Shown: positions 120 through 25,615, numbered from the stretch's first letter. The stretch is DNA of 26,422 bases from Patescibacteria group bacterium (GCA_004321885.1 SCQK01000016.1:1-26422); one strand, 5' to 3'. The notes: generated by a model not told the origin, from the letters alone. A program made the numbers and translations.

Positions 120-851
120 TCATATTACATTGGTAAAAAAATCATCCACGTCATCATTCTCTTCCAAGGCAGCAAATAATTTTTCCAACTTCTGCCCGGT
201 CGCTTCGTCTACTTGCGCTCCGTCTTTCGCCACCCACCGCAACCCTGATTCCGCCGGTTCAATCCCCAACTCTTTAAGCGCGCCCAAAACTTTTTGAAAA
301 TTTTCCACTTTGGTTCTGATTTCCAAAATTTCTTCAGCGTCAACGATATCCTCGGCGCCCGCTTCAATCATTTTTAATTCAAAATCTTCGCGACTACCCC
401 CTCCTATCTCCCTCTTATCAAGGGGGAGGGAAATCACGCCCATCTGCGAAAACATCCAAAGCACACTGCCGGCGCCGGCCATGTTGCCGCCGCCGGCCGA
501 CAAAATTCTTTTCAAATCCGAAACCGTGCGGTTTTTGTTGTCGGTCAACGTTTTAATCAAAATTGCCACACCACCGGGGCCATAACCCTCGTATAACACC
601 TCCTCTATCTGCGCGCCTTCCAGCTCGCCGGCGCCGCGCTTGATGGCGCGCTCAATGTTGTCTTTGGGCATGCCAGCTTCTTTGGCTTTTTCAATGGCCA
701 GGCGCAAAGAAAAATTAGACGACGCGTCTCCGCCGCCGGAACGCGCGGCCACGCTTATGGCCTTGCCTATTTTGGTAAACAAATTTCCGCGCAAAGCGTC
801 TTGCTTGCCCTTGCGCGCCTGTATATTGTGCCACTTGGAATGTCCGCTCAT
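120..851 (-). CDS. yebC: YebC/PmpR family (DUF28/TACO1) transcriptional regulatory protein
   Basis: 243-aa ORF; N-terminus MSGHSKWHNIQARKGKQDALRGNLFTKIGKAI is the family signature start; length typical; one copy of the 38-bp repeat sits in-frame (encodes ...DKREIGGGSRED...). Confidence 0.92.
   Translation of the reverse strand: MSGHSKWHNIQARKGKQDALRGNLFTKIGKAISVAARSGGGDASSNFSLRLAIEKAKEAGMPKDNIERAIKRGAGELEGAQIEEVLYEGYGPGGVAILIKTLTDNKNRTVSDLKRILSAGGGNMAGAGSVLWMFSQMGVISLPLDKREIGGGSREDFELKMIEAGAEDIVDAEEILEIRTKVENFQKVLGALKELGIEPAESGLRWVAKDGAQVDEATGQKLEKLFAALEENDDVDDFFTNVI
393..430 (-). repeat. copy A of 38-bp GGGGGAGG palindromic repeat (reverse orientation), inside yebC
   Basis: ctaccccctcctatctccctcttatcaagggggaggg = reverse complement of the consensus cctcccc-ttgataa-gagggag-atagg-agggggtag. 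Confidence 0.75.
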
Positions 852-888
852 AGTGTCAGTATTCTACTTCAAAAAAAATACAAAAACA

Positions 889-936
889 AGGATAAAAAAT
901 TTGACCCCGTCCGCGATACAATCTGCGAACGGGGTC
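889..936 (-). terminator. intrinsic terminator after the GC-rich two-gene unit
   Basis: hairpin gaccccgtccgc/gcgaacggggtc (903-936) followed on the minus strand by a U-run (plus-strand aaaaaatt 889-900). Confidence 0.5.
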
Positions 937-947
937 TCCCGGGCCTC

Positions 948-1628
948 CTAAATGTTCGGTTTGGGGACGCGCACGATGCGCGCGTCCATCTTTTCCAACT
1001 TTTTTTCTTTCTCGGCGCGCTGCGCCGGGTCAGTGCAGGCCAGTGCCTCCGACGCCAGCCGCGCCCGCTCCGAGGCCAGCGCCTCGGCCAGCACCGCCTG
1101 GGTGATGGCCTGGATGTGCTCGCCAGGCGTGCTGGCGCGCTTGGCCTTTTCGCGGAACGGAGCCGACGGCGACTCGTCGTCAACGCTGAACTCGGCCAGC
1201 GCCGCGTCCGACATCTCTGGCAGCTCAATGGTGCGCGCCGCTCGCGGAGTTGGCTCCGGCAACTCCGCCTTCACCGCCTGGTGCATGCCTGAGGCGCTGC
1301 GAACAGCCTGCATGCAGGCCTCGCCGATGGACGACGCGGTGTTCAGCCTCGGCTTGTTGACAGGCGGTGCCGCGACGCCGGGCGGGAACGGTATTTCCTC
1401 CAGCTTGGTCACCTTGACGGCGGCCAAACCGGCATCCCGCAGGGCCTGCTCCACCTCGCTCACAATGTGCCGTGAGCGACTGCCCAGGATGAGCCATGTC
1501 GGGCGGCGGAGCTTGATCCATTCCACCAAGCGCGGAACATCGACGTCCCGCACCACCACAACCCCGCTTTTGCACTCCTGGCACTCCATGTCGCCGACCT
1601 CACAGCCGACGACCATGAGCTTCTCCAT
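948..1628 (-). CDS. hypothetical protein (GC-rich; N-terminal Cys cluster C-x5-C-x2-C; Ala/Glu-rich low-complexity C-terminal half)
   Basis: 226-aa ORF, about 65% GC versus about 50% for flanks; start overlaps upstream gene stop by 1-2 nt (operon); shares a repeated segment with the upstream 106-aa protein (GVVVVRDVDVPRLVEWIKLRR vs RVVVVIELRTLEQMLERLRS). Confidence 0.55.
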   Translation of the reverse strand: MEKLMVVGCEVGDMECQECKSGVVVVRDVDVPRLVEWIKLRRPTWLILGSRSRHIVSEVEQALRDAGLAAVKVTKLEEIPFPPGVAAPPVNKPRLNTASSIGEACMQAVRSASGMHQAVKAELPEPTPRAARTIELPEMSDAALAEFSVDDESPSAPFREKAKRASTPGEHIQAITQAVLAEALASERARLASEALACTDPAQRAEKEKKLEKMDARIVRVPKPNI

Positions 1629-1629
1629 C

Positions 1630-1950: not shown

Positions 1951-2032
1951 CTTCGCTCTCCTTTTTATCGTCAGCGGCCGCCAGAGCCGCTTGTGTATGT
2001 CAAACTTTTGGCTTTACTTTAAGCCAAAACAC

Positions 2033-2060: not shown

Positions 2061-2061
2061 T

Positions 2062-2121
2062 CAAGAGGGGTGGAGTAACAAAAGTCCTCCCCCTTTTAGG
2101 GGGAGGACAAAGGAGGGGGTA
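2062..2121 (-). terminator. rpoC intrinsic terminator formed by repeat copy B
   Basis: immediately after rpoC stop the minus-strand RNA folds CCUCCCCC-UAAAA-GGGGGAGG followed by ACUUUUGUU. Confidence 0.55.
2085..2121 (+). repeat. copy B of 38-bp GGGGGAGG palindromic repeat
   Basis: tcctccccc-tttta-gggggagg-acaaa-ggagggggta. Confidence 0.85.
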
Positions 2122-2122
2122 T

Positions 2123-5100
2123 TTATGGCTTGTACCCTGTCCCGGCCGGAATCAACCGCCCGATAATCACATTCTCTTTCAATCCTTCCAAATAGTCAAT
2201 CTTGCCGGTAATTGAAGTGTTAATCAAAACCTTGGCGGTTTCCTGAAACGACGCGGCCGACAAAAAGCTCTGGGTGGACAGGGCCACGCGGGAAATACCC
2301 AAAAACATCTCCCGTCCGGCGGCCGGCTTGCTCCCGTCTTTTTTCGCCTGGCGGTTGGAAAAATCCAACTGGGCTTTCTCCACCACTTCGCCGGGCAACA
2401 AATCAGTGTCGCCGGCGTCTTCCACATACACGCGGGAAAACATCTGGCGGATAATCAGCTCCACGTGCTTGTCGTTCACTTTCTGCCCCTGGGAAGAATA
2501 AATATTTTGCACCTCTTCCAATATATACCTCTGCACCGCCTCGCGGCCTTTGAGCTCAAACAACTGATGCAAGTTGATACTGCCGTCGGTCAGGCGCGCG
2601 CCCTTGGCCGCTTTATCGCCGCTTTTCACCATCAACTTATACCCCAAAGGTATGATATAATCGCGCACGTGCGGACCCTCGTAGGTCAGGGTAATCGTGC
2701 TCCGCTCAATTTTTACCGTCCCCGGGTACTTGGCCGCGATTTCCTCGCCCGACGAACCGCGCACCACCAGCACCTCGTCTTTTTTCACGACGGCCCCGTC
2801 TTTCACCAGCACCTCGTCTTCGGCCTTGGACTTTATTTTCATCTCATCCATGCCGGAAAAATGCACGTGCACTATTTTTTGCCCGCGCCGGCCTTCAAAA
2901 ATTTTCTTGCCCGTGGCCGAGGTGATAATCTTGCCGTCGGCTTCCTCAACTTCAATTTCCCCGTCCACTTCGGCCAGCACGGCCTGGCGCTTGGGCGCCC
3001 GCGCTTCAAACAATTCGTCCACGCGCGGCAAACCCTGGGTGATGTCGCTTTCGCTGGCAATGCCGCCGGTGTGAAAGGTTCTCATGGTGAGCTGGGTGCC
3101 GGGCTCGCCGATACTCTGCGCCGCCACAATGCCCACGGCTGTGCCAAATTCCACCGGCTTGTTGTGGCCCAAATCAAATCCGTAGCACTTGCGGCACACG
3201 CCTTTTTGCAAACGGCACTGCAATACACTGCGCACATGCGCCTCTTCAATCTTGGCTTCCTCTATGGCGCGCGCGGCCTTGTCATCTATCATTTCCCCGG
3301 CCTTCACCAGGGTTTTCCGGCCGTCTTTCACATCGGCCAGCACATACCGGCCCCACACGCGGTCCGACAGCTTCTCGCCCATTTCCTTGGACTGGGCCTG
3401 GGTAAAAATTTCCCCGTTCTTGTCGCCGCAGTCTTCTTCCAAAACCAGCACGTCCTGCGACACATCCACCAGACGGCGGGTAAGGTAGCCGGCGTTAGCC
3501 GTGCGCAGAGCCGTATCCGACAAGCCCTTGCGCGTGCCGTGCGAAGAGATAAAAAATTCCAGCACGTCAAAGCCTTCTTTGAAATTTGATTTCACCGGCA
3601 GTTCAATGGTCTCGCCCGAGGGAGACGCCACCAGGCCCTTCATGCCGATGACCTGGCCCAGCTGGCCCCAGGTGCCGCGGGCGCCAGAATCAATCATGGC
3701 ATACACCGGCCCGCCCGCGTCCAGGGCCTCTTGATTCTTGGCCACCACTTTGTTTTTGGTGTCGGCCCAAATTTCCAAAATTTTCACCAGACGCTCGGAT
3801 TGCGTGAGCAGGCCTTCCTGGTACTGCTGTTCCACCCTCTGCACTGCAACATCGGCCTCGCCGATGAGCTGGGGTTTTTCGGAAATACTGGGAAAATCAT
3901 CCATGCCCAAAGAATAGCCCGACTTGGTCACATAGCGATAGCCCATGTTTTTCAGGTTGTCCAAAAAGGCGGCCACTTCTTCGGCCGAGGGCAAAAGCTC
4001 CATGCACAGGCGGATGATGTGGCCCAATTTTTTCACGCCAATGGTCTCATTGAAGAAAGGCAGTTTTTCGGGCACCACCTGGTTAAACAAAATGCGTCCG
4101 ACCGAGGTTTCCACAAGGGCATTTTCTTCGGCGAATTTGGCATTGCCCGCGAATCGCACTTTAATTTTTTCCTGCAAGCCGATGAGGCGCGCTCTGTAGC
4201 CCCAGATGGCCTCTTTTTCCGAGCCGAAAAATTTCTTGGCCTCGGCTTTTTCGTTTTGCAGTCTGGTCAAATAATAACAGCCCAGGGCAATGTCTTGCTT
4301 GGGGGTAATCACCGGCGACCCGGTAGCGGGCTTAAGCAAATTGCGTTCGGCCGCCATCAGATTGTCGGCTTCCCAGCGGGCCTCGGCCGTGAGGGGCAGG
4401 TGCACGGCCATTTGGTCACCGTCAAAGTCCGCGTTAAAAGCCGTGCAAACCAGGGGGTGAAGCTGAATGGCCTTGCCTTCTATCAGCCGCGGATGAAAAG
4501 CCTGGATGCCCAGGCGGTGCAAAGTGGGCGCGCGGTTAAGCAACACGCGCGTTTTTTTGGTAAGCTCTTCCAGAATGTCCCAAACCTCGTCGTTTTCCGC
4601 TTCAATAAAACGCGAGGCGCTGCGGACGTTGTGCGCCAGTTCGCGCTTTATCACCTCGCTCATGATAAACGGCTTGAAGAGTTCCAAAGCCATGCGCTTG
4701 GGCAAACCGCATTCGTCCATATCCAGCTTGGGGCCCACCACGATGACCGAGCGGCCGCTGTAGTCCACGCGCTTGCCGAGCAAATTTTGGCGAAAGCGCC
4801 CCTGCTTGCCTTTCAAAATATCGGCCAAAGAGCGCAGCTGTCTTTTCTGCCCGGTGGAAGCCGTAACGGTTTTGGCATGGCGCGCGTTGTTGTCTATCAG
4901 GGCATCCACCGCTTCCTGTAACATGCGCTTTTCATTGCGGCAAATCACTTCGGGCGCGTCCAATTCCAGCAAACGGCGCAAACGGTTATTCCGGTTTATC
5001 ACGCGGCGATACAAATCATTCAAATCCGAGGTGGCGAAGCGACCGCCGTCAAGCGCCACCATGGGCCGCAAATCCGGCGGCACCACCGGAATATTCTGCA

Positions 5101-5995
5101 TAATCATCCACTCGGGACGAATGGCGTTGGAAGCAAAACTCTTCAGCACTTTTCTGCGGCGGATAATGCGCTCCAATTTTGACCCCTTGGACTTTTGCTG
5201 TTCCTCGGAAAGCTGTTTGATGGTTTCGGCCACGTTGATTCTCTCCAACAAATTGCGCACGGCCTCGGCGCCGATGCTGGCCTCAAAAATATGGCCGTAG
5301 CGCAAAGACAATTCCTGATATTTATTTTCGGAAATAATCCGCATCACCTGCAATTCCTTCAAATCCTTGTCAGCCTGTTGAAAATCCGCGTCCAGGGCCT
5401 CTAATTTGCGTCCGGCCTCTTTTTGAATTTTTTCTAAAACCGAGGCAGCCTGTTTTTTGTCATTGGCCTCGGCCATGGCTTTTTCCGCTTCCTTCTCAAT
5501 CTGCTTTTTCTTGCTTTTGTATTCCTGGCGCAATAAATCCGAGGCCTCTTTTTTCAAACTCTCATCCACGCGCGTAATGATAAAAGAAGCGAAGTAAATT
5601 ACTTTTTCCAGGGCCTGAGCCGACAAATCCAAAACCAAACCGACCTTGGACGGCACCGAGCGCAAAAACCAAATATGCGCCACCGGAGCCGACAATTCAA
5701 TGTGGCCCATGCGCTCGCGGCGCACCGAAGAATGGGTTACTTCCACGCCGCACTTATCGCAGATGATACCCTTGTAGCGAATTTTTTTGTATTTGCCACA
5801 ATAGCATTCCCAGTCTTTGGTGGGGCCGAAAATTTCCTCGGCGAAGAGCCCGCCTTTTTCCGGTTTTTGCGTGCGGTAATTGATGGTCTCGGGCTTGTGC
5901 ACGTCGCCAAACGACCACGAACGGATAACCTCGGGCGAAGCCAGTTTCAAACGAATGGCGTCAAAGTCAGCCAGGTGCAGGTTGTCTCTTTGCAT
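2123..5995 (-). CDS. rpoC: DNA-directed RNA polymerase subunit beta'
   Basis: NADFDGDQMAVHLP catalytic motif and zinc-binding Cys in N-terminus. Conserved N-terminus ADFDAIRLKLASPEVIRSWSFG begins right after the ATG at 5995. The ORF track extends to a TTG at 6064, which would overlap rpoB. Confidence 0.96.
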   Translation of the reverse strand: MQRDNLHLADFDAIRLKLASPEVIRSWSFGDVHKPETINYRTQKPEKGGLFAEEIFGPTKDWECYCGKYKKIRYKGIICDKCGVEVTHSSVRRERMGHIELSAPVAHIWFLRSVPSKVGLVLDLSAQALEKVIYFASFIITRVDESLKKEASDLLRQEYKSKKKQIEKEAEKAMAEANDKKQAASVLEKIQKEAGRKLEALDADFQQADKDLKELQVMRIISENKYQELSLRYGHIFEASIGAEAVRNLLERINVAETIKQLSEEQQKSKGSKLERIIRRRKVLKSFASNAIRPEWMIMQNIPVVPPDLRPMVALDGGRFATSDLNDLYRRVINRNNRLRRLLELDAPEVICRNEKRMLQEAVDALIDNNARHAKTVTASTGQKRQLRSLADILKGKQGRFRQNLLGKRVDYSGRSVIVVGPKLDMDECGLPKRMALELFKPFIMSEVIKRELAHNVRSASRFIEAENDEVWDILEELTKKTRVLLNRAPTLHRLGIQAFHPRLIEGKAIQLHPLVCTAFNADFDGDQMAVHLPLTAEARWEADNLMAAERNLLKPATGSPVITPKQDIALGCYYLTRLQNEKAEAKKFFGSEKEAIWGYRARLIGLQEKIKVRFAGNAKFAEENALVETSVGRILFNQVVPEKLPFFNETIGVKKLGHIIRLCMELLPSAEEVAAFLDNLKNMGYRYVTKSGYSLGMDDFPSISEKPQLIGEADVAVQRVEQQYQEGLLTQSERLVKILEIWADTKNKVVAKNQEALDAGGPVYAMIDSGARGTWGQLGQVIGMKGLVASPSGETIELPVKSNFKEGFDVLEFFISSHGTRKGLSDTALRTANAGYLTRRLVDVSQDVLVLEEDCGDKNGEIFTQAQSKEMGEKLSDRVWGRYVLADVKDGRKTLVKAGEMIDDKAARAIEEAKIEEAHVRSVLQCRLQKGVCRKCYGFDLGHNKPVEFGTAVGIVAAQSIGEPGTQLTMRTFHTGGIASESDITQGLPRVDELFEARAPKRQAVLAEVDGEIEVEEADGKIITSATGKKIFEGRRGQKIVHVHFSGMDEMKIKSKAEDEVLVKDGAVVKKDEVLVVRGSSGEEIAAKYPGTVKIERSTITLTYEGPHVRDYIIPLGYKLMVKSGDKAAKGARLTDGSINLHQLFELKGREAVQRYILEEVQNIYSSQGQKVNDKHVELIIRQMFSRVYVEDAGDTDLLPGEVVEKAQLDFSNRQAKKDGSKPAAGREMFLGISRVALSTQSFLSAASFQETAKVLINTSITGKIDYLEGLKENVIIGRLIPAGTGYKP

Positions 5996-6008
5996 AAAAG
6001 TATTGTCA

Positions 6009-9000
6009 TTATTTATTTTTTTCTTGAGTACTTTCCGCGAGTTCCTGCCTTTGCTTTTCCTCAAACGCCCGCACCTCTTCCACGGGCCGGTAATCGCCAG
6101 ACTCGCTGCGCTTCAGAAGTTCCACATCCAAACCCAGGCCTTTCAGTTCGCGCACCAAAACATTAAACGACTCGGGCAGATTCACGCGGCTGATGGGCTC
6201 GCCCTTAATAATGGCCTCGTAGGCCTTGGAACGGCCGGGCACATCATCGGATTTGATGGTCAAAATTTCCTGCAGGGTATGGGCCGCGCCATAGGCTTCC
6301 AAGGCCCACACTTCCATTTCGCCAAAGCGCTGGCCGCCGAACTGGGCTTTGCCGCCCAGGGGCTGCTGGGTAATCAAACTGTACGGCCCGATGGAGCGCT
6401 GATGGATTTTATCCTCCACCATGTGATTGAGTTTCAGCATATAGCTGTAGCCCACGGTAACTTTGTGGTCAAAGGCCTCGCCGGTGCGGCCGTCATAAAG
6501 AGCAACCTGTCCGCTGGCCGGCAGTCCGGCTTTGGCCAGCTCTTCTTTTATCTGTTCCTCGGAGAGGCCGCTTAGAACCGGCGTCGCTATTTTGTAGCCC
6601 AGGGCATTGGCCGCCAATCCCAAATGATTTTCCAAAAGCTGGCCCAGGTTCATGCGCGAGATAACGCCGAGCGGGGAAAGAATCACGTCAACCGAGGTGC
6701 CGTCTTCCAAAAACGGCATGTCTTCCGCCGGCACCACGCGCGAGATAACGCCCTTGTTGCCGTGGCGTCCGGCCATCTTGTCGCCCACCTGCACCTTGCG
6801 CATGTCAGCCACTTTCACCTGCACCTGCTTTATCACGCCAGGCTGCAATTTATCGCCGTTTTCCGCCGAGAAAATTTTAATGCCGATAACCTTGCCGTGC
6901 TCGCCGTGTTCCAAATACAAAGATGAATCGCGCACATCGCGGGCTTTTTCCCCAAAAATAGCGCGTAAGAGCCGCTCTTCGGCCGAAAGCTCGGTCTCGC
7001 CCTTGGGCGTGATTTTGCCGACCAGTATGTCGCCGGATTTTACCTCGGCGCCCACGCGCACAATGCCCTCGCTGTCCAAATTTTTCAATTTTTCCTCGCT
7101 GACATTGGGAATGTCCGAGGTGACGATTTCCGGGCCCAGCTTGGTCTCGCGCACGTCTATCACATAGTCTTCTATATGAATGGAAGTAAATCTGTCTTCT
7201 TCCACCACGCGCTCGGAAACAATGATGGCGTCTTCGTAGTTGAAGCCGTCCCACACCATATACGCTACCAGCATGTTTTGCCCGAGCGAAAGTTCGCCCT
7301 GGTTGATGCCCGGGCCGTCGGTTATGGCCTGGCCCTTCTTTACCTTGTCTCCCAAATTTACAGTCGGCATCTGATTCACGCAGGTGGAGGCGTTGCTACG
7401 CACGAACTTATTTAAAAAGTGAGTGTGCTTATTGCCTTTTTTGTCGGTGAGCACCACGTGTTTGCCGTCCATTTCCGTAATCTCGCCGTCGGCTTCGGCA
7501 ATCCTCATGTGCCCGCTGTCGTAGGCCGCGCGCGCTTCCACGCCCGTGCCCACCAGGGGCTGTTCGGGTTTGATGCAGGGCACGGCCTGTCTTTGCATGT
7601 TCGTGCCCATCAGGGCGCGGGTGGCATCGTCGTGCTCCAAAAAAGGAATGCAGGCCGTGGCAATGGAAATAATCTGACTGGAAGAAACATCTACATAATC
7701 AACCTCGCTGGTATGGGCAATGCCCGGATTGCCGTGAATGCGGGCCGGGGTCATTTCTTCCGTAAAATATCCGTCCGCGTCCAATTTTACTTTGGCAGAG
7801 GCGGTAATGGCTTTTTCTTCCCGGAAAGCATTAAGATAAACCACTTCGCTGGTCACGCGCGCTTTAAGCGGAACCTTCTTTTCTTTGCTTTTGGCCAGTT
7901 TGCGCGCGATGTCCTCGGTAATTTTTGTGCCGGCTTTTACGCCGCCAAAATCAGCGCCTAAAATTTCCCCCTCGGTGAAGCGCGGGTCGTTTTCCACTTC
8001 GCGCAAAACCTTGCGGTAGGGTGTTTCAATAAAACCAAAGTCATTGACGCGCGCGAAGCTGGAAAGATGATTTACCAGACCGATGTTCGGTCCTTCGGGA
8101 GTGGCAATAGGGCAGATGCGGCCATAGTGGGTGGCGTGCACGTCGCGCACCTCAAAGCCGGCGCGGTCGCGCGAAAGTCCGCCCGGGCCCAGGGCCGACA
8201 CGCGGCGCTTGTGTTCCAATTCGGAGAGCGGATTGGTCTGGTCCATGAACTGCGAAAGCTGGGAACTCATGAAAAATTCGCGGATGGCCGATATCACGGG
8301 CCGCGCGTTGATAAGCTTGTTGGGTGTGAGCTGGTCAAGCTCTTGGGTGCTCATGCGGTCTTTGATAATGCGCTCCATGCGGGTAAGGCCCACGCGGAAA
8401 CGATTTTGCGCCAGCTCGCCCACGGCCCGGATGCGTCGGTTGCCCAGATGGTCAATATCATCAGGCTCTTCCTGGGTCACGTTCAGGCGCACCACTTCTT
8501 TCAAAACCAAGAGTAGCTTTTCCGGCGACAGCACGCGGTTTTCTTTTTTGTCAAAATCATCGGGCCCATAGCCCAAATCAAATTTGGTATTGAATTTGTA
8601 AACACCCACGCGCCCCAAATCATAACGGTCAAAATTGAAAAACATGGCGTAAATCAAACTCTTGGCATTATCGGCCGTGGCCAGGTCGCCCGGCCTGATT
8701 CTTTTATATACCTCAATCAAGCCTTCATCCGCGTTGGCGGCCAAATCCTTTTTTATGGTCGCGTCAACATAATCCACGCTCGGATGATTGTTCACATCTT
8801 TGAAAGCGCTGACCAGTTCCTCGCTCGCGCCCATGCCAAAAGCGCGCAGGAGCGAGGTGGCGGCCACTTTGCGCTTGCGGTCCACTTTTACCCAGACTGC
8901 GTTGTTCATATCGGTTTCAATTTCAATCCAGGCCCCGCGGTTTGGTATGATTTTAGCGCCATAATAGCGGCGGCCGCGGATGTTCTCGGCCGTGAAAAAA

Positions 9001-9434
9001 GCGCCGGCGCTTCTGATGAGTTGGGAAACCACCACGCGCTCAATGCCGTTGACTATAAAAGTGCCGCGCCGGGTCATAAGGGGTACATCGCCCAAATAGA
9101 TTTCCTGGGTTTTGCCGGCGCCGGTGCGCTTGTTGGCCAGGCGCGTGGTTACGCGCAGGGGCGCTTCAAAAGTAATATTGCGTTCGCGGCAGGTTACCTC
9201 ATCAAACTTGGGTTCATCCAGATAATAGTCGTCAAAATACAATTCCAAATCACGGCCCGTGAAGTCCGTAATCGGTGAGAGCTCATCAAACAATTCTTTA
9301 ATGCCGAATTTCAAAAACCAATCATAAGAATTTTTTTGCACCTCTATCAGGTCGGGCAGGGGCATGGCGTCGCGCGTGCGCGTAAAAAAACGGCGCTCCA
9401 ATGTTTTTAGCTGTTGTCGCTTGTAGAGGGACAT
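6009..9434 (-). CDS. rpoB: DNA-directed RNA polymerase subunit beta
   Basis: 1141 aa; conserved beta-subunit blocks (e.g. GGQRFGEMEVWALEAYGAAHTLQE, NMQRQAVP); immediately upstream of rpoC. Confidence 0.96.
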   Translation of the reverse strand: MSLYKRQQLKTLERRFFTRTRDAMPLPDLIEVQKNSYDWFLKFGIKELFDELSPITDFTGRDLELYFDDYYLDEPKFDEVTCRERNITFEAPLRVTTRLANKRTGAGKTQEIYLGDVPLMTRRGTFIVNGIERVVVSQLIRSAGAFFTAENIRGRRYYGAKIIPNRGAWIEIETDMNNAVWVKVDRKRKVAATSLLRAFGMGASEELVSAFKDVNNHPSVDYVDATIKKDLAANADEGLIEVYKRIRPGDLATADNAKSLIYAMFFNFDRYDLGRVGVYKFNTKFDLGYGPDDFDKKENRVLSPEKLLLVLKEVVRLNVTQEEPDDIDHLGNRRIRAVGELAQNRFRVGLTRMERIIKDRMSTQELDQLTPNKLINARPVISAIREFFMSSQLSQFMDQTNPLSELEHKRRVSALGPGGLSRDRAGFEVRDVHATHYGRICPIATPEGPNIGLVNHLSSFARVNDFGFIETPYRKVLREVENDPRFTEGEILGADFGGVKAGTKITEDIARKLAKSKEKKVPLKARVTSEVVYLNAFREEKAITASAKVKLDADGYFTEEMTPARIHGNPGIAHTSEVDYVDVSSSQIISIATACIPFLEHDDATRALMGTNMQRQAVPCIKPEQPLVGTGVEARAAYDSGHMRIAEADGEITEMDGKHVVLTDKKGNKHTHFLNKFVRSNASTCVNQMPTVNLGDKVKKGQAITDGPGINQGELSLGQNMLVAYMVWDGFNYEDAIIVSERVVEEDRFTSIHIEDYVIDVRETKLGPEIVTSDIPNVSEEKLKNLDSEGIVRVGAEVKSGDILVGKITPKGETELSAEERLLRAIFGEKARDVRDSSLYLEHGEHGKVIGIKIFSAENGDKLQPGVIKQVQVKVADMRKVQVGDKMAGRHGNKGVISRVVPAEDMPFLEDGTSVDVILSPLGVISRMNLGQLLENHLGLAANALGYKIATPVLSGLSEEQIKEELAKAGLPASGQVALYDGRTGEAFDHKVTVGYSYMLKLNHMVEDKIHQRSIGPYSLITQQPLGGKAQFGGQRFGEMEVWALEAYGAAHTLQEILTIKSDDVPGRSKAYEAIIKGEPISRVNLPESFNVLVRELKGLGLDVELLKRSESGDYRPVEEVRAFEEKQRQELAESTQEKNK

Positions 9435-13032: not shown

Positions 13033-15336
13033 ATGCCCCGACCTCGCATATACAGGCGAACGCACAAACCTCGCTTTAGTTTGAATCTCAATCCCGACAT
13101 CAGCCGCGGGCTGATTTCCATTTTCCTCTTTATCGTGGGCGGGGTATCGGCGCTGGCCTTTTTCCACCTGGCCGGCGTGGCCGGCGAATTCATAGATTCG
13201 CTTCTCGCCATTTCTTTCGGCCAGGTGCGCTATGTTTTTCCCATCATTCTCATCTTGGTCGGCATCCTCACCCTCAAAGATTTGCGTTACGAATACCGGC
13301 CCACGCACTGGCTGGGCTCCCTGCTTTTCTTTTTAAGCTTCAACGCCCTGGTGCATCTGCAAACACCTGTTTTGGAAATGAAAGACACTGCCCTGCAAGG
13401 CTATGGCGGCGGGCTGGTCGGGTTGGCGCTGGCCTGGCCCCTCGCGACCTATGTGGGCTATTGGGGCGGATTGGTTATTTTAATCGGTCTTGTGCTGGCC
13501 TCGGTAATTTTCCTGTTCAACACCTCGCTGGCGCGCATCGTGGGCCTGCATCGTCAATTTTTTTTCGTGCTGGGCTGGTTTGGCCGGCAGGTCATCGCTT
13601 TTTTCGCCCTTTTCAAAAGACCGGCCAGGGTAAAATTTAAAATCAACGGCGAATACGAAGAACAAAACGAGGAAGAAGCAGAAGACGAAACACAACCAGA
13701 CCCGGAAGATGAAAAAAGGATATTCAAACAGCGCGTCATTGCCAAGCAAGAAGAAAACGAGGTCATCTCGGCTGAAAAAGAAAAAACTGAAGAAAAAATG
13801 GAAGTGACTAGGCCCAAGCCGGTTATTCGCGATTTGCCGCCTCTGAACTTATTATATATTTCCAAAAGCAAACCCACTTCGGGCGACATAAAAAGCAACG
13901 CTGAGGTTATCCGCGACACTTTATTCAATTTCGGCATGGAAGTTGAGATGGGCGAGGTGCGCGTGGGTCCGACTGTTACGCAATATTCCCTTAAACCGGC
14001 CAAAGGCATCAAGCTGAATCGCATTACCGCCTTGAGTAATGACTTGGCTTTGGCTTTAGCCGCCCACCCCATTCGCATTGAGGCCCCTATCCCGGGCAAA
14101 TCACTGGTGGGCATTGAAGTGCCAAATCAAAAAGTGGCTATGGTTACTTTGCGCGAACTGCTGGAAAGCCAGGAATACAAAGCCAGCGATAACCCCATGA
14201 AAATCGCCTTAGGCAAAGACGTGGCCGGCAAGGTCTGGTTCGGCGACTTGCCCAAAATGCCCCACTTGCTCATTGCTGGCGCCACGGGCTCAGGCAAAAC
14301 TGTGTGCATCAACACCATTTTGCTTTCTTTACTTTACCAAAACACGGCCGAAACCCTGCGCCTTATAATGGTAGACCCGAAACGGGTGGAGCTCACCATG
14401 TACAACGGCATTCCGCACCTGCTCACGCCGGTAATCACCGACGCGGCTAAAACCGTAAACGCCTTAAAGTGGACCATCGGCGAAATGGACCGGCGCTTTA
14501 CGCTTTTATCCGAGAGCGGAAATCGCGATATCAATTCCTACAATCGCACGGCCGATGAGCCTTTGCCTCACATTATCTTTGCCATAGACGAGCTGGCCGA
14601 CCTGATGGCCATGGCCGCCAGCGACGTGGAAGCCGGCATCATCCGCATCGCCCAGATGGCGCGCGCCGTGGGCATCCACTTGCTGGTGGCCACCCAGCGC
14701 CCGAGCGTGGAAGTCATCACCGGCCTGATGAAAGCCAATATTCCGGCGCGCATAGCGTTTTCAGTGGCAAGCCTCATTGACTCGCGCACCATCCTTGACT
14801 GCCCGGGCGCGGAAAAATTGCTCGGCCGCGGCGACATGCTGTTTTTAACCGCCGAACTCACCAAGCCCAAACGTTTGCAGGGCGCCTTTGTGTCCGAAGA
14901 AGAAATGAAACGGGTGATAGACCACTTAAAAGGCGACGAGCCGCCGGTTTACGACGACTCCATTGTTTCCAAAAACGCCGAAGTTAAATTCGGAAGCACG
15001 GTAAACATGTTCGGCGGTCCGGGCGACGATGTTGACCCGCTTTTTGAAGACGCCAAAAAAATCGTGCTTGATTCGGGCAAAGCCAGCGCCTCGCTTTTGC
15101 AAAGATTTTTGAAACTGGGCTATGCCCGCGCCGCGCGCCTGCTTGACCAATTGGAAGAAGCTGGTATAGTAGGGCCGGCCGACGGCGCCAAACCGCGCGA
15201 GGTCTTTGGGGAATATTTTTCGGCCGAAAGCGAACTGCCTGAACCAATTGAGAAACCGGAACCGGACAAAGAACTGCCGGCCGAAGAACAAACCATGGAC
15301 GCGGGCGGGACCGTGTTTGACGAAGAAACAAAATAA
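13033..15336 (+). CDS. ftsK: DNA translocase FtsK/SpoIIIE
   Basis: 767 aa; N-terminal TM helices, Walker A GATGSGKT, VATQRPSVEVITG, C-terminal gamma wHTH (SASLLQRFLKLGYARAARLLDQLEEAGIVGP). Confidence 0.95.
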   Translation: MPRPRIYRRTHKPRFSLNLNPDISRGLISIFLFIVGGVSALAFFHLAGVAGEFIDSLLAISFGQVRYVFPIILILVGILTLKDLRYEYRPTHWLGSLLFFLSFNALVHLQTPVLEMKDTALQGYGGGLVGLALAWPLATYVGYWGGLVILIGLVLASVIFLFNTSLARIVGLHRQFFFVLGWFGRQVIAFFALFKRPARVKFKINGEYEEQNEEEAEDETQPDPEDEKRIFKQRVIAKQEENEVISAEKEKTEEKMEVTRPKPVIRDLPPLNLLYISKSKPTSGDIKSNAEVIRDTLFNFGMEVEMGEVRVGPTVTQYSLKPAKGIKLNRITALSNDLALALAAHPIRIEAPIPGKSLVGIEVPNQKVAMVTLRELLESQEYKASDNPMKIALGKDVAGKVWFGDLPKMPHLLIAGATGSGKTVCINTILLSLLYQNTAETLRLIMVDPKRVELTMYNGIPHLLTPVITDAAKTVNALKWTIGEMDRRFTLLSESGNRDINSYNRTADEPLPHIIFAIDELADLMAMAASDVEAGIIRIAQMARAVGIHLLVATQRPSVEVITGLMKANIPARIAFSVASLIDSRTILDCPGAEKLLGRGDMLFLTAELTKPKRLQGAFVSEEEMKRVIDHLKGDEPPVYDDSIVSKNAEVKFGSTVNMFGGPGDDVDPLFEDAKKIVLDSGKASASLLQRFLKLGYARAARLLDQLEEAGIVGPADGAKPREVFGEYFSAESELPEPIEKPEPDKELPAEEQTMDAGGTVFDEETK

Positions 15337-15349
15337 TACCCCTGCCCAG

Positions 15350-15388
15350 CCTTCCCCTTGTTTAAGGGGGAGGAACAGGAGGGGGTAA
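15350..15388 (+). repeat. copy C of 38-bp repeat; its 3' GGAGG serves as SD of the next gene
   Basis: ccttcccc-ttgttta-agggggagg-aacag-gagggggta followed by aactATG. Confidence 0.85.
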
Positions 15389-15391
15389 ACT

Positions 15392-16069
15392 ATGGCGATT
15401 TTTTGCCGCAAAAAAATGGAGCCCCCGCGCACCGCCAGCGCCGCCCTCAAAAAAGCGCGCGCCGACAGACAGCTTTCTTTGGAGGCCGTCGCCGCGCAAA
15501 CTCACATCGCCATTAAATACCTGGAAGCCATTGAAAACAACGACTGCGACGCCCTGCCCCAAACCAAAGCTCACTGTCTGGCCTATGTACGCTCGTTTGC
15601 CGCGGCCGTGGGCCTTAATCCCGACGCGCTGACGCGCAAATTTGACAAAGAAGCCAATTTGGAAAATTTATCTGCGGTCCATCCGGCCAAACATTTAAAA
15701 ATTAAAAGCGGCGCCATCAGCATGCTGGCCAAAGCCGCCGTAGCCGGCGCCATGGTCTTGGCCGTGCTGGGTTATTTGAGCTGGCAGATATACGGCATTC
15801 TCCAACCGCCCAAACTATCCGTGCATTCGCCGGCCGAAGGCATGATTACTGGCCAGCTTTCCATAATAGTCAAAGGCGAAACCCAAAAAGAAATCAAACT
15901 CACCGTAAACGGACAGGAAATAATGGTAAGCGAGCAGGGAATCTTTGAAGCGCCCGTGGACTTGTCAAACGGGCTTAACACCATTAATATAGTGGCTACC
16001 AAAAAGCACGGCAAAACGACCACGGTAACGCGACATGTGATAGTGAATTCTCTCGGTTTTAGAAATTAA
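15392..16069 (+). CDS. rodZ: RodZ-like cytoskeleton protein (XRE-type HTH, TM segment, DUF4115-like C-terminal domain)
   Basis: [33 protein letters not shown]; [21 protein letters not shown]; beta-rich C-terminus; AGGAGG 9 nt upstream of ATG. Confidence 0.65.
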
Positions 16070-19832: not shown

Positions 19833-20056
19833 CCCACCAGCAAAACTTTTTGCCGGCTGGTAAAGCCGGAGACGATTCTGACGGTTGCAATTGGAACCTG
19901 AAAATAGTCGGCCGCGGCTTTTATCACCGCCCGGTTGGCCAAGCCGCGCTCGGGCGGCTCTTTTACCCAAATCACAAAATGCGTCCCGTCAATTTTTTCC
20001 ACTTGCTCCCGCCCGGACAATGGTTTCGCTTTCACGAACACGCGCATACGCGACAA
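19829..20056 (-). CDS. DUF167 (YggU/UPF0235) family protein
   Basis: 75 aa; VFVKAKPLSGREQV...VIWVKEPPERGLANRAVIKAAADYFQVPIATVRIVSGFTSRQKVLLV matches the DUF167 pattern; start may be the Met at 20047. Confidence 0.65.
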   Translation of the reverse strand: MSRMRVFVKAKPLSGREQVEKIDGTHFVIWVKEPPERGLANRAVIKAAADYFQVPIATVRIVSGFTSRQKVLLVG

Positions 20057-21287
20057 AACTTAAAATTATCCAAAACATCATGGCTAAATCGTTTTTGAAG
20101 TAGGGCGCGTCCACCAGCCCGTGCACAAACACGGCGGCCAGAGCCGCGAGCGCGCCGGTGGCCATTATTCCGCCATTCTTCTTTAATATATATGCTGCCG
20201 ACCCCAGCAAGGCAAAAAACGACAGCATGCCGGCCAACCCGGTTTCGGTCCAAAAATTGAGCGCGATGTTGTGCGGATAAATCAAACGCTCCATTTCTTT
20301 GGAATTGTAATGCGGCTTTTGAATTTTTCTGAAAAACTGCCGTATGCCCGCGCCCAAAATAAAATTCCTGGGCGAAGCGGATAAAAACTGCCAAGAATAA
20401 CTCCACAACACCAGCCGATTTTGCCCGGATTTATCCTGCAAAAGCAGTGCGCTTTTCATCCCCGGCGCAAACAGGCAGGCAATAACCGCGACAATTAAAA
20501 CCGCGGCCGCGATTTTTCTATAACCGATTAAAAATATATAAACTATGGAAGCGGCCAGCAGCGCCAGCCAGGCCCCGCGCGAAAAAGAAAAAAACAAGGC
20601 CGCGATAGCGAGCAGAAAAAACAAAAGAGGGAAAAATCGCTTCAAGTTTCCTCCCCTTAATAAGGGGGGGATTAAGGAGGGGTAGACAAAAGACAAGCCA
20701 AGCACCAGTGTCGGAACCAAATATAACCCAAGGGCGTTGGGCGAAGTAAAAAAAGAAGTAACTCGGCCGCGCAAATCATCATCCCACAGGCTGGGCGGAT
20801 AATAGGCAGGGTCAAACTTCTGCCAAAGCGCCAGAATGCTTACGGCCGCGGTGGAATAAAGCAGATACTTCGCCAGATTTTCTGCGCCGATTTCTTTGCG
20901 CCGGCCCACCAGAATAAAAAACACCAGCATCGGCTCCAAAAAATACGCCCGCCACTGGCCCAGCGAGGCCACCGCCATATCGCTGACAAAAATGGAGATA
21001 ACCGACGAGATAAAAAAAACACCGATGGCGCCGGCCAAAATTTTATGCTCAAAAATAAAATTTTTAATTTCCGCGCAGTCGCGGCGCGCGTGTTTTGTCA
21101 GCCAAACCAAAAACAGGGCGCCAAAAGTGATTTCCAAAAGAGTGGTGGGCAAACCGAATAATTTGAAACGTATTAAATACGCCGGCAAAAGCAAAATCAA
21201 AAACATCAAACCCAGCCGGAAGTTTTTCCAGGCAAGCAAACAAAAGACAAAAAAATATAAAATGACAAGCGCAAACATAGCTACCAC
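19989..21287 (-). CDS. O-antigen ligase (Wzy_C/WaaL) family membrane protein
   Basis: 432 aa, about 10-12 TM; FSFSRGAWLALLAASIVYIF and PHNIALNFWTETGLAGML motifs; carries repeat copy D in-frame (YPSLIPPLLRGGNLKRFF); 3' end overlaps the DUF167 ORF by about 60 nt. Confidence 0.8.
   Translation of the reverse strand: MVAMFALVILYFFVFCLLAWKNFRLGLMFLILLLPAYLIRFKLFGLPTTLLEITFGALFLVWLTKHARRDCAEIKNFIFEHKILAGAIGVFFISSVISIFVSDMAVASLGQWRAYFLEPMLVFFILVGRRKEIGAENLAKYLLYSTAAVSILALWQKFDPAYYPPSLWDDDLRGRVTSFFTSPNALGLYLVPTLVLGLSFVYPSLIPPLLRGGNLKRFFPLLFFLLAIAALFFSFSRGAWLALLAASIVYIFLIGYRKIAAAVLIVAVIACLFAPGMKSALLLQDKSGQNRLVLWSYSWQFLSASPRNFILGAGIRQFFRKIQKPHYNSKEMERLIYPHNIALNFWTETGLAGMLSFFALLGSAAYILKKNGGIMATGALAALAAVFVHGLVDAPYFKNDLAMMFWIILSFVAYARVRESETIVRAGASGKN
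20648..20684 (+). repeat. copy D of 38-bp repeat inside the O-antigen ligase gene
   Basis: ttcctcccc-ttaataa-ggggggg-attaa-ggaggggtag. Confidence 0.8.
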
Positions 21288-22768: not shown

Positions 22769-22954
22769 ATGAAAAAAAACAAACACCCAAAAAAAGGTTT
22801 GCCCGCGAAAGTTCGCCTCGGCGAACCATTCCAGGGCATGCCTCCTTGTTCGGGGAAAAAGCCGACACTCGTCGGTTTCGCTAACCCCGACATCTTCGCG
22901 CACCTTAACATGCTCGGTGTCTTTGGCTCCGGGGTCAAACCCGTGGCCAACTAG
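22769..22954 (+). CDS. small hypothetical protein (61 aa)
   Basis: MKKNKHPKKGLPAKVRLGEPFQGMPPCSGKKPTLVGFANPDIFAHLNMLGVFGSGVKPVAN; SD gggaga 7 nt upstream; 16 nt after the previous ORF. Confidence 0.35.
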   Translation: MKKNKHPKKGLPAKVRLGEPFQGMPPCSGKKPTLVGFANPDIFAHLNMLGVFGSGVKPVAN

Positions 22955-23020
22955 ACCCGCCCCAGAAGGGCCGTGACCCGCGGCCCGAACGCGCTCTATG
23001 CCGGAGCGCGCGTCTCCTCC

Positions 23021-23067
23021 CTCCTGCTCCGCTTTCATCCCTTTTCTCGGAGCAGGAGGGTTTTTTT
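23021..23067 (+). terminator. intrinsic terminator
   Basis: ctcctgctccg - 16-nt loop - cggagcaggag then gggttttttta. Confidence 0.65.
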
Positions 23068-25615
23068 ATCCTTTTTTTCTAAAAATCCACACTGCCAAAG
23101 CGCCGATTTTTTTTAACCCGCCTTTCAGCGCCGCTCCCCGCGCCTTGGCCAAAAACCCCAACAGCAGTGTCGTCACCCCGCCGGCCGTGGCTGTCAGATA
23201 TTTTTCAGTCGTGTCCTTTTCTTTGTTTTGCCCCGCGCTTATCTGCTCCTGCTTTTTCAACAAATCCGGCGACGGTCCGAACGAAACAACATCTTCGTCG
23301 GAGCGCGGCCACACCTGGAGCCCGTTTTTGCCCTGTTCCAAAACGCCGACCACCTCCACATTCTCCCCTTCCTTAAATTTTTTCTTGTCTATTTTGGCGT
23401 ACTTTTTGAAATAAATAACCGTTTCCTCGGCCCCGTCATCCAGATACATTAAATTGCTTTTGATTTCCGTAATTTCGCCGGCCACCTTCACCAGCGCTCC
23501 GCCCGCCTCATCGTCAATTTCGTCTGGCGCCACGGCCGCGGGTTTTAACTGGCGCTCGGTGGCCAAAATATCAATATCCTTTTTTGTTTTTATTTTCACC
23601 CGCTTGACCCCGCCCGCTTCAGACCGCTCGCCGCGCACTTCAATATAATCACCGGGTTTCAAATCCGGAAAATCTTTTTTGTAGGAATAAATTTGCATGC
23701 CCAAAGCAACTTTTGGGTCGGAAATATAAAAAAACTGCACCCCGAAATTGCCGGCCACGGCGCTGACAATGCCGCGAATCTTGACGCGCGTTCCCTTGGC
23801 CGCCTGCCGCGCCTGTTCAATAGTCATGGCCACAAGCGGCTTGTAATTTTTAGAAGCGGTTTTTTTCTTGGCCGTTTTTTTAGCCGCTTTCGCTTCTCTC
23901 CCCTTTATAAGGGGAGAGTTAGAGAGGGGTATTTGCGACAAAGAAGCTACCGCCACCCGCCCCGGGCTCGGCGTTTGCCACTTCCACTCGCCCCCCACCA
24001 GCGCATAGCTTTTACTGTCTTCGCTTTTCCCGAATTTCACCAAATCAACCACCTGGCTGTCGGGCGACAGCAGTTCAACTTTATCGCCGGTATTTTCCAA
24101 ATTGATTTTCGTGGCCAGCCGGTAAAAAACCAAAAATCCGCCTCCATTGATAAAAGTTTTATCCGGTAAAATAAATTTTTTACCACTGACGTCGCGCAAA
24201 ATCCAGCCCGACAAATTCGCCGTGCTGGAAGCGCTGTTGTAAAGCTCTATGTACTCGCTTGTGTCCAAACCCAGCGGGTCGGAAAAAATTTCGCTGATGA
24301 CAACAGCCGAATTTCTGATGGATAACCCCGGGCCGATGGCAATGGAAATTTTTTTGCTCCCGGCCGTGCCGCTCGTGCTGGTGGCGCTGACGATCACAGA
24401 AAATTTTCCCGACGTAGCGAACGCGCGCGAGACCTCTTCGCCCAAAGCAAAAACGCCGTCGCCAAAATTCCAGGCGAAACTTAAAACCCCGCCGCGCGGG
24501 TCAGCCGAATCAGCCGCGTCAAAGTTTATCATCTCGCCCAATTCCGCGCTGGCCACGGCATTGATTTTCCAAACGATTTCCGTGTCATCGGTTTCGGTAA
24601 TAACATTTTCCGCGCCCGGCGTGGGCTCGTCGCTCCATTGCCATTTTCCGCCGGCAACGCGCGAATAGCTTTGCCCCTCGGGCGCTTTATCATACTTTAT
24701 CATGTCAACTACACTCTCTCCATAACTCAACTTCACTTCTTCTTTGGTGGAATTATTCAGTGCAATGCCGGTCGTTGTTCTTTTCCAAATAACAATCTGC
24801 CCGGGCCCGATACTGCCGCTCAAAGAAAAGCTCTTCACCAAATCAGATAATTTCCAACCAACCAAATCAACCGCGGCCGTTGAAGTATTTTTGATTTCAA
24901 TAAACTCTTCTTCAATATCCGAACCCGGCGGATTGGGGTAAATTTCGTTCAGGATAAGGGCTCCCTCCCCTTGATAAGGGGAAGGTTGGGATGGGGTAGT
25001 AAGGGGTGGGGTAACTGGTGAAGTTCCCTCCCCTTGATACTTGCCCGCCTCTGGCGGGAGGGAGGACGAGGGAGGGGTAGTCGTGGCCGGCGCTCCGACG
25101 CTGTTCACCGCTCCCACCGTATTCCCATTCGTATGCTCGCGCCAATTCGCGCTGGTATAATCGGCCAAAAACGGGTCAATCCTTTGCAAAGAAAAATTTG
25201 GCGCGTTAATATAGGTAAATTTTTCCACAAAATTTCCGCTCACGTCTTTGAGCCCTATCTCCTCGCCGCTTTCATTCAAACTGCTCCACGATGAATCAAA
25301 TACCGAACCGGCAAACGAGGGATAATCAAGCATAAAAGTGGTGCTGACTTGCGCGATGACAACGTATTCGCCGGGCGAAACTATCGGGTCGCTCGCCTTA
25401 AGACCGTGGTTGGTGTTATCTTCCCAAAATTTCCATTCGCTCAAATCAACCGGTTCATTACCTTTATTCCAAATTTCAATCCACTCGTGTGTGCTGGCGG
25501 CATAAGCGCCGACTTCGTTTATTACAATATCCGTATTCGCCGCCCGAACCGCGGTAAAAACAAAAAAACTGCCCGCGGCGAGGAGTGATAAGAAGAAAAA
25601 TAGCTTGCGCCGCAT
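23066..25615 (-). CDS. lamin-tail-domain (LTD x3) surface protein with C-terminal OB-fold-like domain and TM anchor
   Basis: signal peptide MRRKLFFFLSLLAAGSFFVFTAVRA; LTD signatures IVINEVGAYAASTHEWIEIWNKGNEPVDLSEWKF, ALILNEIYPNPPGSDIEEEFIEIKNTSTAAVDLVGWKL, AVVISEIFSDPLGLDTSEYIELYNSASSTANLSGWIL; OB-like GTRVKIRGIVSAVAGNFGVQFFYISD; C-terminal hydrophobic anchor; three repeat copies in-frame. Confidence 0.8.
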   Translation of the reverse strand: MRRKLFFFLSLLAAGSFFVFTAVRAANTDIVINEVGAYAASTHEWIEIWNKGNEPVDLSEWKFWEDNTNHGLKASDPIVSPGEYVVIAQVSTTFMLDYPSFAGSVFDSSWSSLNESGEEIGLKDVSGNFVEKFTYINAPNFSLQRIDPFLADYTSANWREHTNGNTVGAVNSVGAPATTTPPSSSLPPEAGKYQGEGTSPVTPPLTTPSQPSPYQGEGALILNEIYPNPPGSDIEEEFIEIKNTSTAAVDLVGWKLSDLVKSFSLSGSIGPGQIVIWKRTTTGIALNNSTKEEVKLSYGESVVDMIKYDKAPEGQSYSRVAGGKWQWSDEPTPGAENVITETDDTEIVWKINAVASAELGEMINFDAADSADPRGGVLSFAWNFGDGVFALGEEVSRAFATSGKFSVIVSATSTSGTAGSKKISIAIGPGLSIRNSAVVISEIFSDPLGLDTSEYIELYNSASSTANLSGWILRDVSGKKFILPDKTFINGGGFLVFYRLATKINLENTGDKVELLSPDSQVVDLVKFGKSEDSKSYALVGGEWKWQTPSPGRVAVASLSQIPLSNSPLIKGREAKAAKKTAKKKTASKNYKPLVAMTIEQARQAAKGTRVKIRGIVSAVAGNFGVQFFYISDPKVALGMQIYSYKKDFPDLKPGDYIEVRGERSEAGGVKRVKIKTKKDIDILATERQLKPAAVAPDEIDDEAGGALVKVAGEITEIKSNLMYLDDGAEETVIYFKKYAKIDKKKFKEGENVEVVGVLEQGKNGLQVWPRSDEDVVSFGPSPDLLKKQEQISAGQNKEKDTTEKYLTATAGGVTTLLLGFLAKARGAALKGGLKKIGALAVWIFRKKG
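23895..23932 (+). repeat. copy E of 38-bp repeat (tctccc/gggaga variant) inside LTD gene
   Basis: ttctctcccc-tttataa-ggggagag-ttag-agaggggtat. Confidence 0.75.
24961..25013 (+). repeat. copy F of repeat with extra GGGGT(G)GGGGTA tail, inside LTD gene
   Basis: ctccctcccc-ttgataa-ggggaagg-ttgg-gatggggtag-taaggggtggggtaa. Confidence 0.75.
25024..25080 (+). repeat. copy G of repeat with 17-nt insertion in the loop, inside LTD gene
   Basis: ttccctcccc-ttgatac[ttgcccgcctctggcgg]gagggagg-acg-agggaggggtag. Confidence 0.7.

Follow-up and report, generated by a model that had tools for sequence, protein, structure and literature searches.

Candidate class II intrastrand triplex motifs dispersed within and between genes of a Patescibacteria contig

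The sequence analysed here, referred to as the window, is a 26.4-kb contig (SCQK01000016.1) of a metagenome-assembled genome of Patescibacteria, a group that is likewise called candidate phyla radiation (CPR). Seven copies of a short G/C-rich repeat, designated c1 to c7, are scattered over it. Five of them lie in three genes, namely yebC (120..851, minus strand, assigned by Pfam and structure alignment), a gene of the Wzy_C/O-antigen-ligase family (19989..21287, minus strand) and a gene for a surface protein with three LTD domains, a PKD domain and an OB fold (23066..25615, minus strand), the last two assigned by Pfam and homologues. The remaining two are intergenic; in the window gene set, one adjoins rpoC, which together with rpoB occupies 2123-9434 on the minus strand, and the other separates ftsK (13033-15336, plus strand) from a helix-turn-helix (HTH) gene downstream of it (15392-16069). 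A preceding interpretation made from the DNA letters only, hereafter the sequence-only reading, had described these copies as an undescribed family of palindromic elements resembling the Rickettsia palindromic elements (RPEs). All seven copies were recovered, at or within 2-3 nt of the positions given there, and the division into five copies that leave their open reading frames (ORFs) unbroken and two intergenic copies was confirmed. The existence of a dispersed family, its in-frame placement and its occurrence in loops and linkers thus stood, whereas the notions of a plain palindrome, of an undescribed element and of clean insertions did not.

We found that the complete unit consists of 10 + 3 + 10 + 3 + 10 = 36 nt, arranged as a C/T arm, a loop, a complementary G/A arm, a spacer and a G-rich third arm. 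This exact length is shown by c4, c5 and c6. The third arm mirrors the second, with A or T opposite A, and repeats it neither directly nor in inverted orientation. The label of a palindromic element missed this key feature, because the 3' block GGAGGGGGTA mirrors the G-rich arm of the hairpin, giving a Y-R-R' intrastrand-triplex design. A class II, or purine-motif, intrastrand triplex is classically built from a pyrimidine (Y) arm, a purine (R) arm and a mirrored R arm along a single strand.

The copies were located by sequence comparison, by an exact pattern built from the window copies (CCCCTT N3-6 GGGGRRR N2-6 RRRNGGGGTA) and by a structural scanner that looks for a C/T arm, a complementary arm and a mirror tail; thermodynamic DNA folding was applied to the hairpins, the third strand being outside its model. 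Copy c5 (23896..23931, plus strand; scanner and folding) is a perfect 36-nt unit, CTCTCCCCTT-TAT-AAGGGGAGAG-TTA-GAGAGGGGTA, which lies in the LTD/PKD/OB gene and encodes the antisense peptide IPLSNSPLIKGRE in the linker that joins the third LTD domain to the OB fold. In the same gene, c6 (24963..25013, plus strand; scanner) comprises the 36-nt unit CCCTCCCCTT-GAT-AAGGGGAAGG-TTG-GGATGGGGTA at 24963-24998 and an extra partial tail, GTAAGGGGTGGGGTA, with an antisense peptide ending in TPSQPSPYQGEGA in the linker between the first and second LTD domains. Its spacer is TTG instead of TTA, by which a TAA stop is avoided in the reading frame of c6. The neighbouring c7 (25026..25079, plus strand; sequence and folding) is a degenerate 54-nt copy with both loops expanded and the antisense peptide TTPPSSSLPPEAGKYQGEG, and was missed by the scanners because of its long loop. 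Within its first loop (25040-25062), a small G/C hairpin of its own, GCCCGCC-TCT-GGCGGGA, was observed, which could be a nested insertion or a local duplication within the repeat. The 36-nt copy c4 (20649..20684, plus strand; pattern and scanner), TCCTCCCCTT-AAT-AAGGGGGGGA-TTA-AGGAGGGGTA, lies in the Wzy gene and gives the antisense peptide YPSLIPPLLRGG. The copy in yebC, c1 (395..433, minus strand; sequence and scanner), is a degenerate triplex motif that covers codons ~140-153 and is read in sense as SLPLDKREIGGGS.

Both intergenic copies were detected by sequence, scanner and folding. Copy c2 (2085..2121, plus strand), TCCTCCCCCT-TTT-AGGGGGAGGA-CAA-AGGAGGGGGT(A), lies directly 3' of the rpoC stop codon (2123-2125, minus strand). 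Just upstream of it, at 2066-2078, stands an orphan G-rich block, AGAGGGGTGGAGTA, which resembles a lone third arm and may be the remnant of a second copy. Copy c3 (15337..15388, plus strand) is double-tailed, TACCCCTGC-CCAGC-CTTCCCCTT-GTTT-AAGGGGGAGG-AACA-GGAGGGGGTA; owing to the second, complementary tail on its left side (15337-15349), which precedes the unit at 15350-15387, it scores on both strands.

The triplex code was followed closely by c1 to c6. In each of them, the C/T arm and its complement are 9-11 nt long with at most one mismatch and enclose a short loop, and the antiparallel third arm obeys the reverse-Hoogsteen code, with G over G and A or T over A, at 8-10 of 9-11 positions. 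The terminal TT of the first arm, AA of the second and TA of the tail are conserved and fit further triads under the same mirror rule; the second loops observed were TTA, TTG, CAA, AACA and TA. Stable DNA hairpins were predicted (-7 to -14 kcal/mol), among them that of c2 at -13.2 kcal/mol (z = -3.6) and that of c5, also with z = -3.6. Since T frequently stands opposite A in the tail, a purine motif on the G-rich strand fits, and a pyrimidine-motif triplex on the C-rich strand does not. Judged by this code, the G-rich single DNA strand can fold as a hairpin with the third arm in the major groove, through G*G-C, A*A-T and T*A-T triads. We therefore consider it probable, at roughly 0.75, that these repeats constitute, in Patescibacteria, a family of G/C-rich class II intrastrand triplex motifs, of the same kind as the BoxC, PIT and TMECO motifs discussed below, and that they are recent non-autonomous dispersed repeats.

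Copies were collected from 185,579 species genomes with a pattern that fixed the CCCCTT, GGGG and GGGGTA blocks and left the A and T positions free, which gave at least 119 loci with at least 140 copies; the cross-phylum figures given here and below refer to the matches listed. The tail register was better explained by the mirror than by the direct arrangement in 103 of 142 copies, and the reverse held in 5. Across 58 arm variants the three arms covary, as in the sets CTCTCCCC/GGGGAGAG/GAGAGGGG, CCTCCCC/GGGGAGG/GGAGGGG and TTCCCCC/GGGGGAA/AAGGGGG. We also considered that the second and third arms might supply the four G tracts of a G-quadruplex (e.g., GGGGAGGGTTAGGGTGGGG), with the C-rich arm as a competitor, and copies of the Nostoc type as well as c6 do contain four G tracts of at least 2-3 guanines. 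However, c5 (GGGGAGAGTTAGAGAGGGG) and the GGGGGAG/GAGGGGG variants have two usable G tracts and still keep the mirror rule, and neither the covarying C/T arm nor the mirrored A/T positions would be needed for a quadruplex. This explanation appears extremely improbable, and it was rejected on account of the c5-type variants that do not have four G tracts.

The repeat family is far more frequent than expected by chance. The exact pattern had five matches in the window against 0.00 in 100 dinucleotide-preserving shuffles, and the structural scanner gave seven hits, the 100 Markov simulations averaging 0.07 and reaching 2 at most. In a repeat search, the motif family was the largest direct-repeat family of the window. 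A metagenome scan for close relatives of the window YebC reached a best identity of 67%, and the loci so obtained (674 kb) were used as an unselected background; on these yebC loci of other bacteria the scanner gave 4 hits per 674 kb, as compared with 7 per 26 kb in the window, an enrichment of ~45-fold. The 10-mer GGAGGGGGTA by itself was also tried as a marker and was not significant (4 hits against 1.0 expected), so that the full pattern is needed.

The genic copies use four combinations of frame and orientation, c1 being read in sense and c4, c5 and c6/c7 in antisense in three different frames, and the peptides differ accordingly. The translations quoted in the sequence-only reading (DKREIGGGSRED, PLLRGGNLK, PLIKGRE, PYQGEGAL and KYQGEGTS) proved exact, as did its statement that frames and orientations vary. 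These peptides are rich in Pro and Gly and linker-like, and they do lie in linkers, which might suggest that the likeness at the DNA level is a by-product of selection on such peptides or of low-complexity composition. The same DNA, however, gives unrelated peptides in its four frame/orientation combinations, two copies are intergenic, the orthologues do not have the peptides, and the expected numbers of hits, 0.00 and 0.07, leave little room for chance. We regard this explanation as effectively refuted, its probability being practically nil.

The host ORFs are, as judged from homology, genuine genes. Pfam domains flank the copies on both sides in YebC and in the LTD/PKD/OB protein; in the Wzy protein, conserved N-terminal sequence precedes c4 and the Wzy_C domain follows it. 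YebC could be aligned over its full length with solved YebC structures, and hundreds of full-length homologues were found for the Wzy and LTD proteins. In all three proteins the copies are located in variable loops or linkers that are missing or different in orthologues. The site of c1 is a short variable inter-domain loop of YebC. The closest orthologue, P0002, does not have c1; its identity to the window protein is 83% overall and rises to 87% once the loop is set aside, and its loop is encoded by unrelated DNA and consists of 10 codons, as compared with 14 in the window yebC, a net gain of 4 aa. Relative to Aquifex YebC, the window protein has 5 additional residues at this loop. A further YebC, P0012, contains in the same loop a perfect variant of the motif, TCCCCCTCTT-ACC-AAGAGGGGGA-GT(A)-AGGGGGAGTT, with the peptide IPLLPRGGVGGV and a net gain of 8 aa. 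P0012 belongs to a different YebC clade, of which the nearest members (83-85% identical) do not have the motif, and the simplest reading of these sequences is that a single tolerant site gained a copy twice, independently. The native loop was replaced in both cases rather than merely interrupted. The site of c4 is a variable inter-helix loop of Wzy, ~11 aa longer than in the shortest orthologues. The sequence-only reading had predicted insertions of 10-14 aa relative to orthologues; what we found were net gains of +4 aa (yebC) and about +11 aa (Wzy), with the native loop replaced. It had also named two observations that would speak against a repeat family, the same peptides in unrelated orthologues and a chance-level motif frequency, and the opposite was seen for both.

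In Wzy orthologues we also noticed peptides of the VIPAKAGIQ/PAFAGMT type (alignment columns ~147-156 and ~228-260), in P0125 and P0127 within the c4 loop and in P0128 within another loop. These look like products of a different palindromic repeat family, present in frame in related CPR genomes.

These data bear directly on whether the repeat is a mobile palindrome like an RPE, that is, a selfish hairpin of the type of a miniature inverted-repeat transposable element that inserts in frame and in which the third G-rich block has no structural role. Copies lie in frame within genes in several frames and orientations, orthologues do not have them, the presence of another palindromic-repeat peptide in the same Wzy loop of relatives indicates that such loops accept repeats, and in-frame insertion of repeats is classically exemplified by RPEs. 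RPEs are ~150 bp long and comprise ten Rickettsia families, each of which encodes a conserved peptide read in one fixed frame. Compared by description, they resemble the window repeat in lying in frame within unrelated genes and in adding peptide segments at tolerated positions. They differ in length, the window unit having 36 nt, in the several frames and orientations used here, and in that no triplex design is described for them. Hairpin symmetry also fails to explain the mirrored third arm and its covariation with both hairpin arms, the inverted termini TACCCC...GGGGTA are present only in c3, and the net insert sizes differ from the length of the element. We thus conclude that the repeat is not an RPE, and we find an RPE-like palindrome improbable as its explanation.

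The two intergenic copies may have been put to use by their surroundings. On the minus strand, the c2 hairpin followed by TTTTGTT resembles an intrinsic terminator, and it ranks first among the terminator-like sites of the first 20 kb, exactly after rpoC; the relatives carry ordinary terminators at the 3' position of rpoC. From its sequence, c2 looks like the terminator hairpin of rpoC and may represent an exaptation. Copy c3 fills the gap between the ftsK stop codon (15334-15336) and the ATG of the HTH gene (15392), and its tail places GGAGG 9 nt ahead of this ATG (15378-15394). Two further intergenic CPR copies (L003, ~5300-5330; L128, 3939-3990) are alike, and across these cases a GGAGG-like third arm lies 7-9 nt before the ATG. 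As far as the sequence indicates, the third arm of c3-type copies may supply a ribosome-binding site.

These observations raise the possibility of an RNA regulatory element, in which the C-rich arm would pair with the first G-rich arm or with the GGAGG tail, similar to a Shine-Dalgarno sequence, and thereby control translation or termination. The position of GGAGG before the HTH gene and in L003 and L128, as well as the terminator-like form of c2 on the rpoC strand, would agree with such a role. Five of the seven copies, however, lie in coding regions, four of these antisense to the mRNA; the tail mirrors the second arm and therefore cannot pair canonically with the first without A-C mismatches; and no Rfam family matched. 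At gathering score, Rfam gave only tRNAs in the window and nothing over the motif in 17 loci of other phyla. Moreover, PIT elements have no promoter or terminator activity in E. coli, and purine-motif triplexes are stated not to form in RNA (PMC4666352), which points to a property at the DNA level. An RNA element is therefore highly improbable.

The yebC-rpoC interval (852-2122) has 65% G+C, against ~50% elsewhere, its ORFs overlap on both strands, and none of them matched Pfam or NCBIfam. In relatives, the interval varies: it spans 110 nt in L124, holds two genes in L122, one of them RhuM, and three in L123. The segment 852-2122 may be foreign DNA, with c2 at its rpoC border.

No motif was found in 60 kb of syntenic DNA from three relatives in which the order rpoB-rpoC-yebC-ruvC is conserved; since close relatives do not have the copies, these look like recent, lineage-specific gains. 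Outside this lineage, the hosts among the matches listed were Nostoc, Scytonema, Microcoleus, Pseudanabaena, Bradyrhizobium and other Hyphomicrobiales, Nitrospirales, Deltaproteobacteria, Planctomycetia and Poribacteria, and, within the CPR, Saccharibacteria, Gracilibacteria and Peribacteria. Viral contigs gave only 24 single hits, so that nothing suggests carriage by phages. Among the matches listed from the various phyla, 35% lay in long open frames, as compared with 81% of random positions, which amounts to a depletion. In-frame copies were nonetheless recognised in UvrA of Nitrospirae (L022, 2099-2129), DnaE of Bradyrhizobium (L008, 4269-4300) and the oxoprolinase of Planktothrix (L016, 1587-1617), and in cyanobacterial Ser/Thr-kinase-AAA proteins (L039, L102 and L109) at one common position immediately ahead of the P-loop. 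The UvrA copy encodes LPPSHPPLARGGWGG, an insertion of 9 residues relative to Thermotoga UvrA (PDB 3pih). The in-frame copies of other phyla show a recurring peptide signature, PL(x)KGG. One Nitrospirales chromosome (OY820905.2, L033) carries fifteen triplex motifs of several subtypes within 8 kb (2168-7880), with a spacing of partly ~275 nt (5211, 5486, 5760 and 6248), which suggests a tandem array of a longer motif-containing unit.

The architecture has been published, contrary to the suggestion that the repeat is undescribed, and the same sequence type occurs in many phyla. BoxC of E. coli, the PIT elements (Hoyne et al. 2000) and the TMECO/TM motifs share it, for example CCCTCTCCCTTGAGGGAGAGGGTTAGGGTGAGGGT (Holder et al. 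2015, PMC4666352). The TMECO consensus is CCCTCNCCC N3-6 GGGNGAGGG N3 GGGNGAGGG, with TTA or CCG as the second loop, and its single strand forms a stable triplex as judged by circular dichroism and nuclear magnetic resonance (PMC4666352). In E. coli K-12 the motifs are always intergenic and number 23 per 4.6 Mb; they form inverted A+B pairs, and their copy number varies widely among strains (PMC4666352). Triplex motifs are abundant in cyanobacteria (Microcystis, Anabaena and Nostoc), and the authors linked them to local genome instability (PMC4666352). The window repeat agrees with BoxC, PIT and TMECO in the order of its parts, in the 3-6 nt loop and a second loop of 3 nt (that of type A, TTA, is also found in c4 and c5), in a length of ~34-36 nt, in occurring in both orientations and in inverted pairs or double forms, and in being dispersed, with copies that are highly alike and very unequal in number between close relatives. 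It differs in the arm sequence; the exact TMECO consensus has 0 matches in the window, so that we are dealing with a different sequence family of the same kind. The TMECO arms have 9 nt, whereas the window arms have 10 nt including the terminal T-A triads. The density also differs, with ~1 copy per 4 kb in the CPR window against the 23 per 4.6 Mb of E. coli K-12, and, in contrast to the intergenic TMECO, 5 of the 7 window copies are in frame inside Pfam-supported genes.

Nearly the same sequence type was found elsewhere, for example in Nostoc as CCCTCCCCTT-TAT-AAGGGGAGGG-TTA-GGGTGGGGTA, which nearly matches c6 and has the same 36-nt unit. The Nostoc units are arranged as inverted pairs, tails outwards, and belong to two subtypes. 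Some copies of this CCCCTT...GGGGTA type in Nostoc, Bradyrhizobium and Nitrospirales are likewise genic and in frame; most copies in these phyla are intergenic, often as such inverted pairs. The CPR copies may share descent with those of other phyla or may have converged with them under the same structural constraint. REP and REPIN (repetitive extragenic palindromic) sequences are similar in being short (20-40 nt), G/C-rich imperfect palindromes with common inverted doublets and lineage-specific expansion; they differ in being extragenic, in a 5' GT[AG]G, in an associated RAYT gene and in having no mirrored third arm. In the window, GTAG is present only at the 3' end of 4 of the 7 copies, the copies are mostly intragenic, and no RAYT or Y1-transposase domain was found in the 26 kb. 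Our literature search found no paper on palindromic or in-frame repeats in the CPR or on TMECO in coding regions, and full-text searches with the motif sequences and the derived peptides gave nothing relevant. Triplex motifs in a CPR host, their high density here and their in-frame copies inside genes are thus apparently unreported.

Several points weigh against the interpretation as recently dispersed triplex motifs. Two of the seven copies, c1 and c7, are degenerate. The evidence obtained here is a sequence code, and the fold itself was shown in the literature for the E. coli motif only, for which no triplex was detected in vivo by footprinting with dimethyl sulfate; the E. coli TMECO/PIT elements also show no promoter or terminator activity (PMC4666352). 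No transposase, nuclease or other mobilising gene was found in the 26-kb window with Pfam and NCBIfam, including unannotated ORFs, and these 26 kb are the only part of the genome covered. The net changes of +4, +8, +9 and ~+11 aa, never +12, are not what simple insertion of a 36-nt unit would give. The Wzy orthologues are at most 59% identical, so that insertion is weakly resolved there, and the LTD orthologues, at most 48% identical and with hypervariable linkers, are too distant for insertion to be resolved at c5-c7. Since the collection pattern fixed CCCCTT, GGGG and GGGGTA, the cross-phylum conservation of these blocks is partly by construction.

We infer that the units are dispersed repeats, short and non-autonomous, with a recent expansion in this lineage, and that the single strand in its folded form is required for their copying or sets it off. 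For the copying itself, we suspect either a process acting on this folded strand, or repair from a template at places where replication is stalled by the fold; the replacement of native loops argues against simple cut-and-paste. In a genome with little intergenic DNA, genic copies would survive where the frame, the stop content and the protein structure allow, that is, in surface loops and linkers, in stop-free frames and with lengths trimmed to multiples of three. Copies c2 and c3 would then possibly have been put to use, as the rpoC terminator hairpin and as the GGAGG site of the HTH gene, respectively.

The other genes of the window are recA, three tRNA genes and genes for a NUDIX and an MFS protein. 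The longest rpoC ORF, with a TTG start at 6064, runs 56 nt into the end of rpoB (6009-6064), and the true rpoC start probably lies downstream. The GC skew of the window is negative throughout, and the G-rich motif strand is on the plus strand, against the skew, in 6 of the 7 copies, which hints at a bias relative to replication, seven copies being too few for a test.

Intrastrand triplex motifs, known for ~30 years, have been given neither a function nor a mode of copying, and they were regarded as intergenic. With ~1 copy per 4 kb, most of them translated, relatives that do not have them and a second yebC lineage with a copy at the same loop, the window is a compact natural test case for how such motifs spread, whether the triplex fold is of importance in vivo and how much the motifs contribute to variation in protein loops and linkers. 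For annotation, PLLRGG, PLIKGRE and PYQGEG in CPR and cyanobacterial proteins should be regarded as repeat-derived and not as conserved protein motifs. As a bolder and, in our view, doubtful extension, the CCCCTT...GGGGTA motifs might constitute one cross-phylum family of tiny mobile DNA that is copied as a folded single strand and repeatedly rewrites the surface loops of conserved proteins (YebC, UvrA, DnaE, oxoprolinase and STAND kinases), leaving the PL(x)KGG/PYQGEG signature. If this were true, the replacement of loops would point to an undescribed, repair-templated copying mechanism, and a route of protein evolution like that of the RPEs would extend well beyond Rickettsia.

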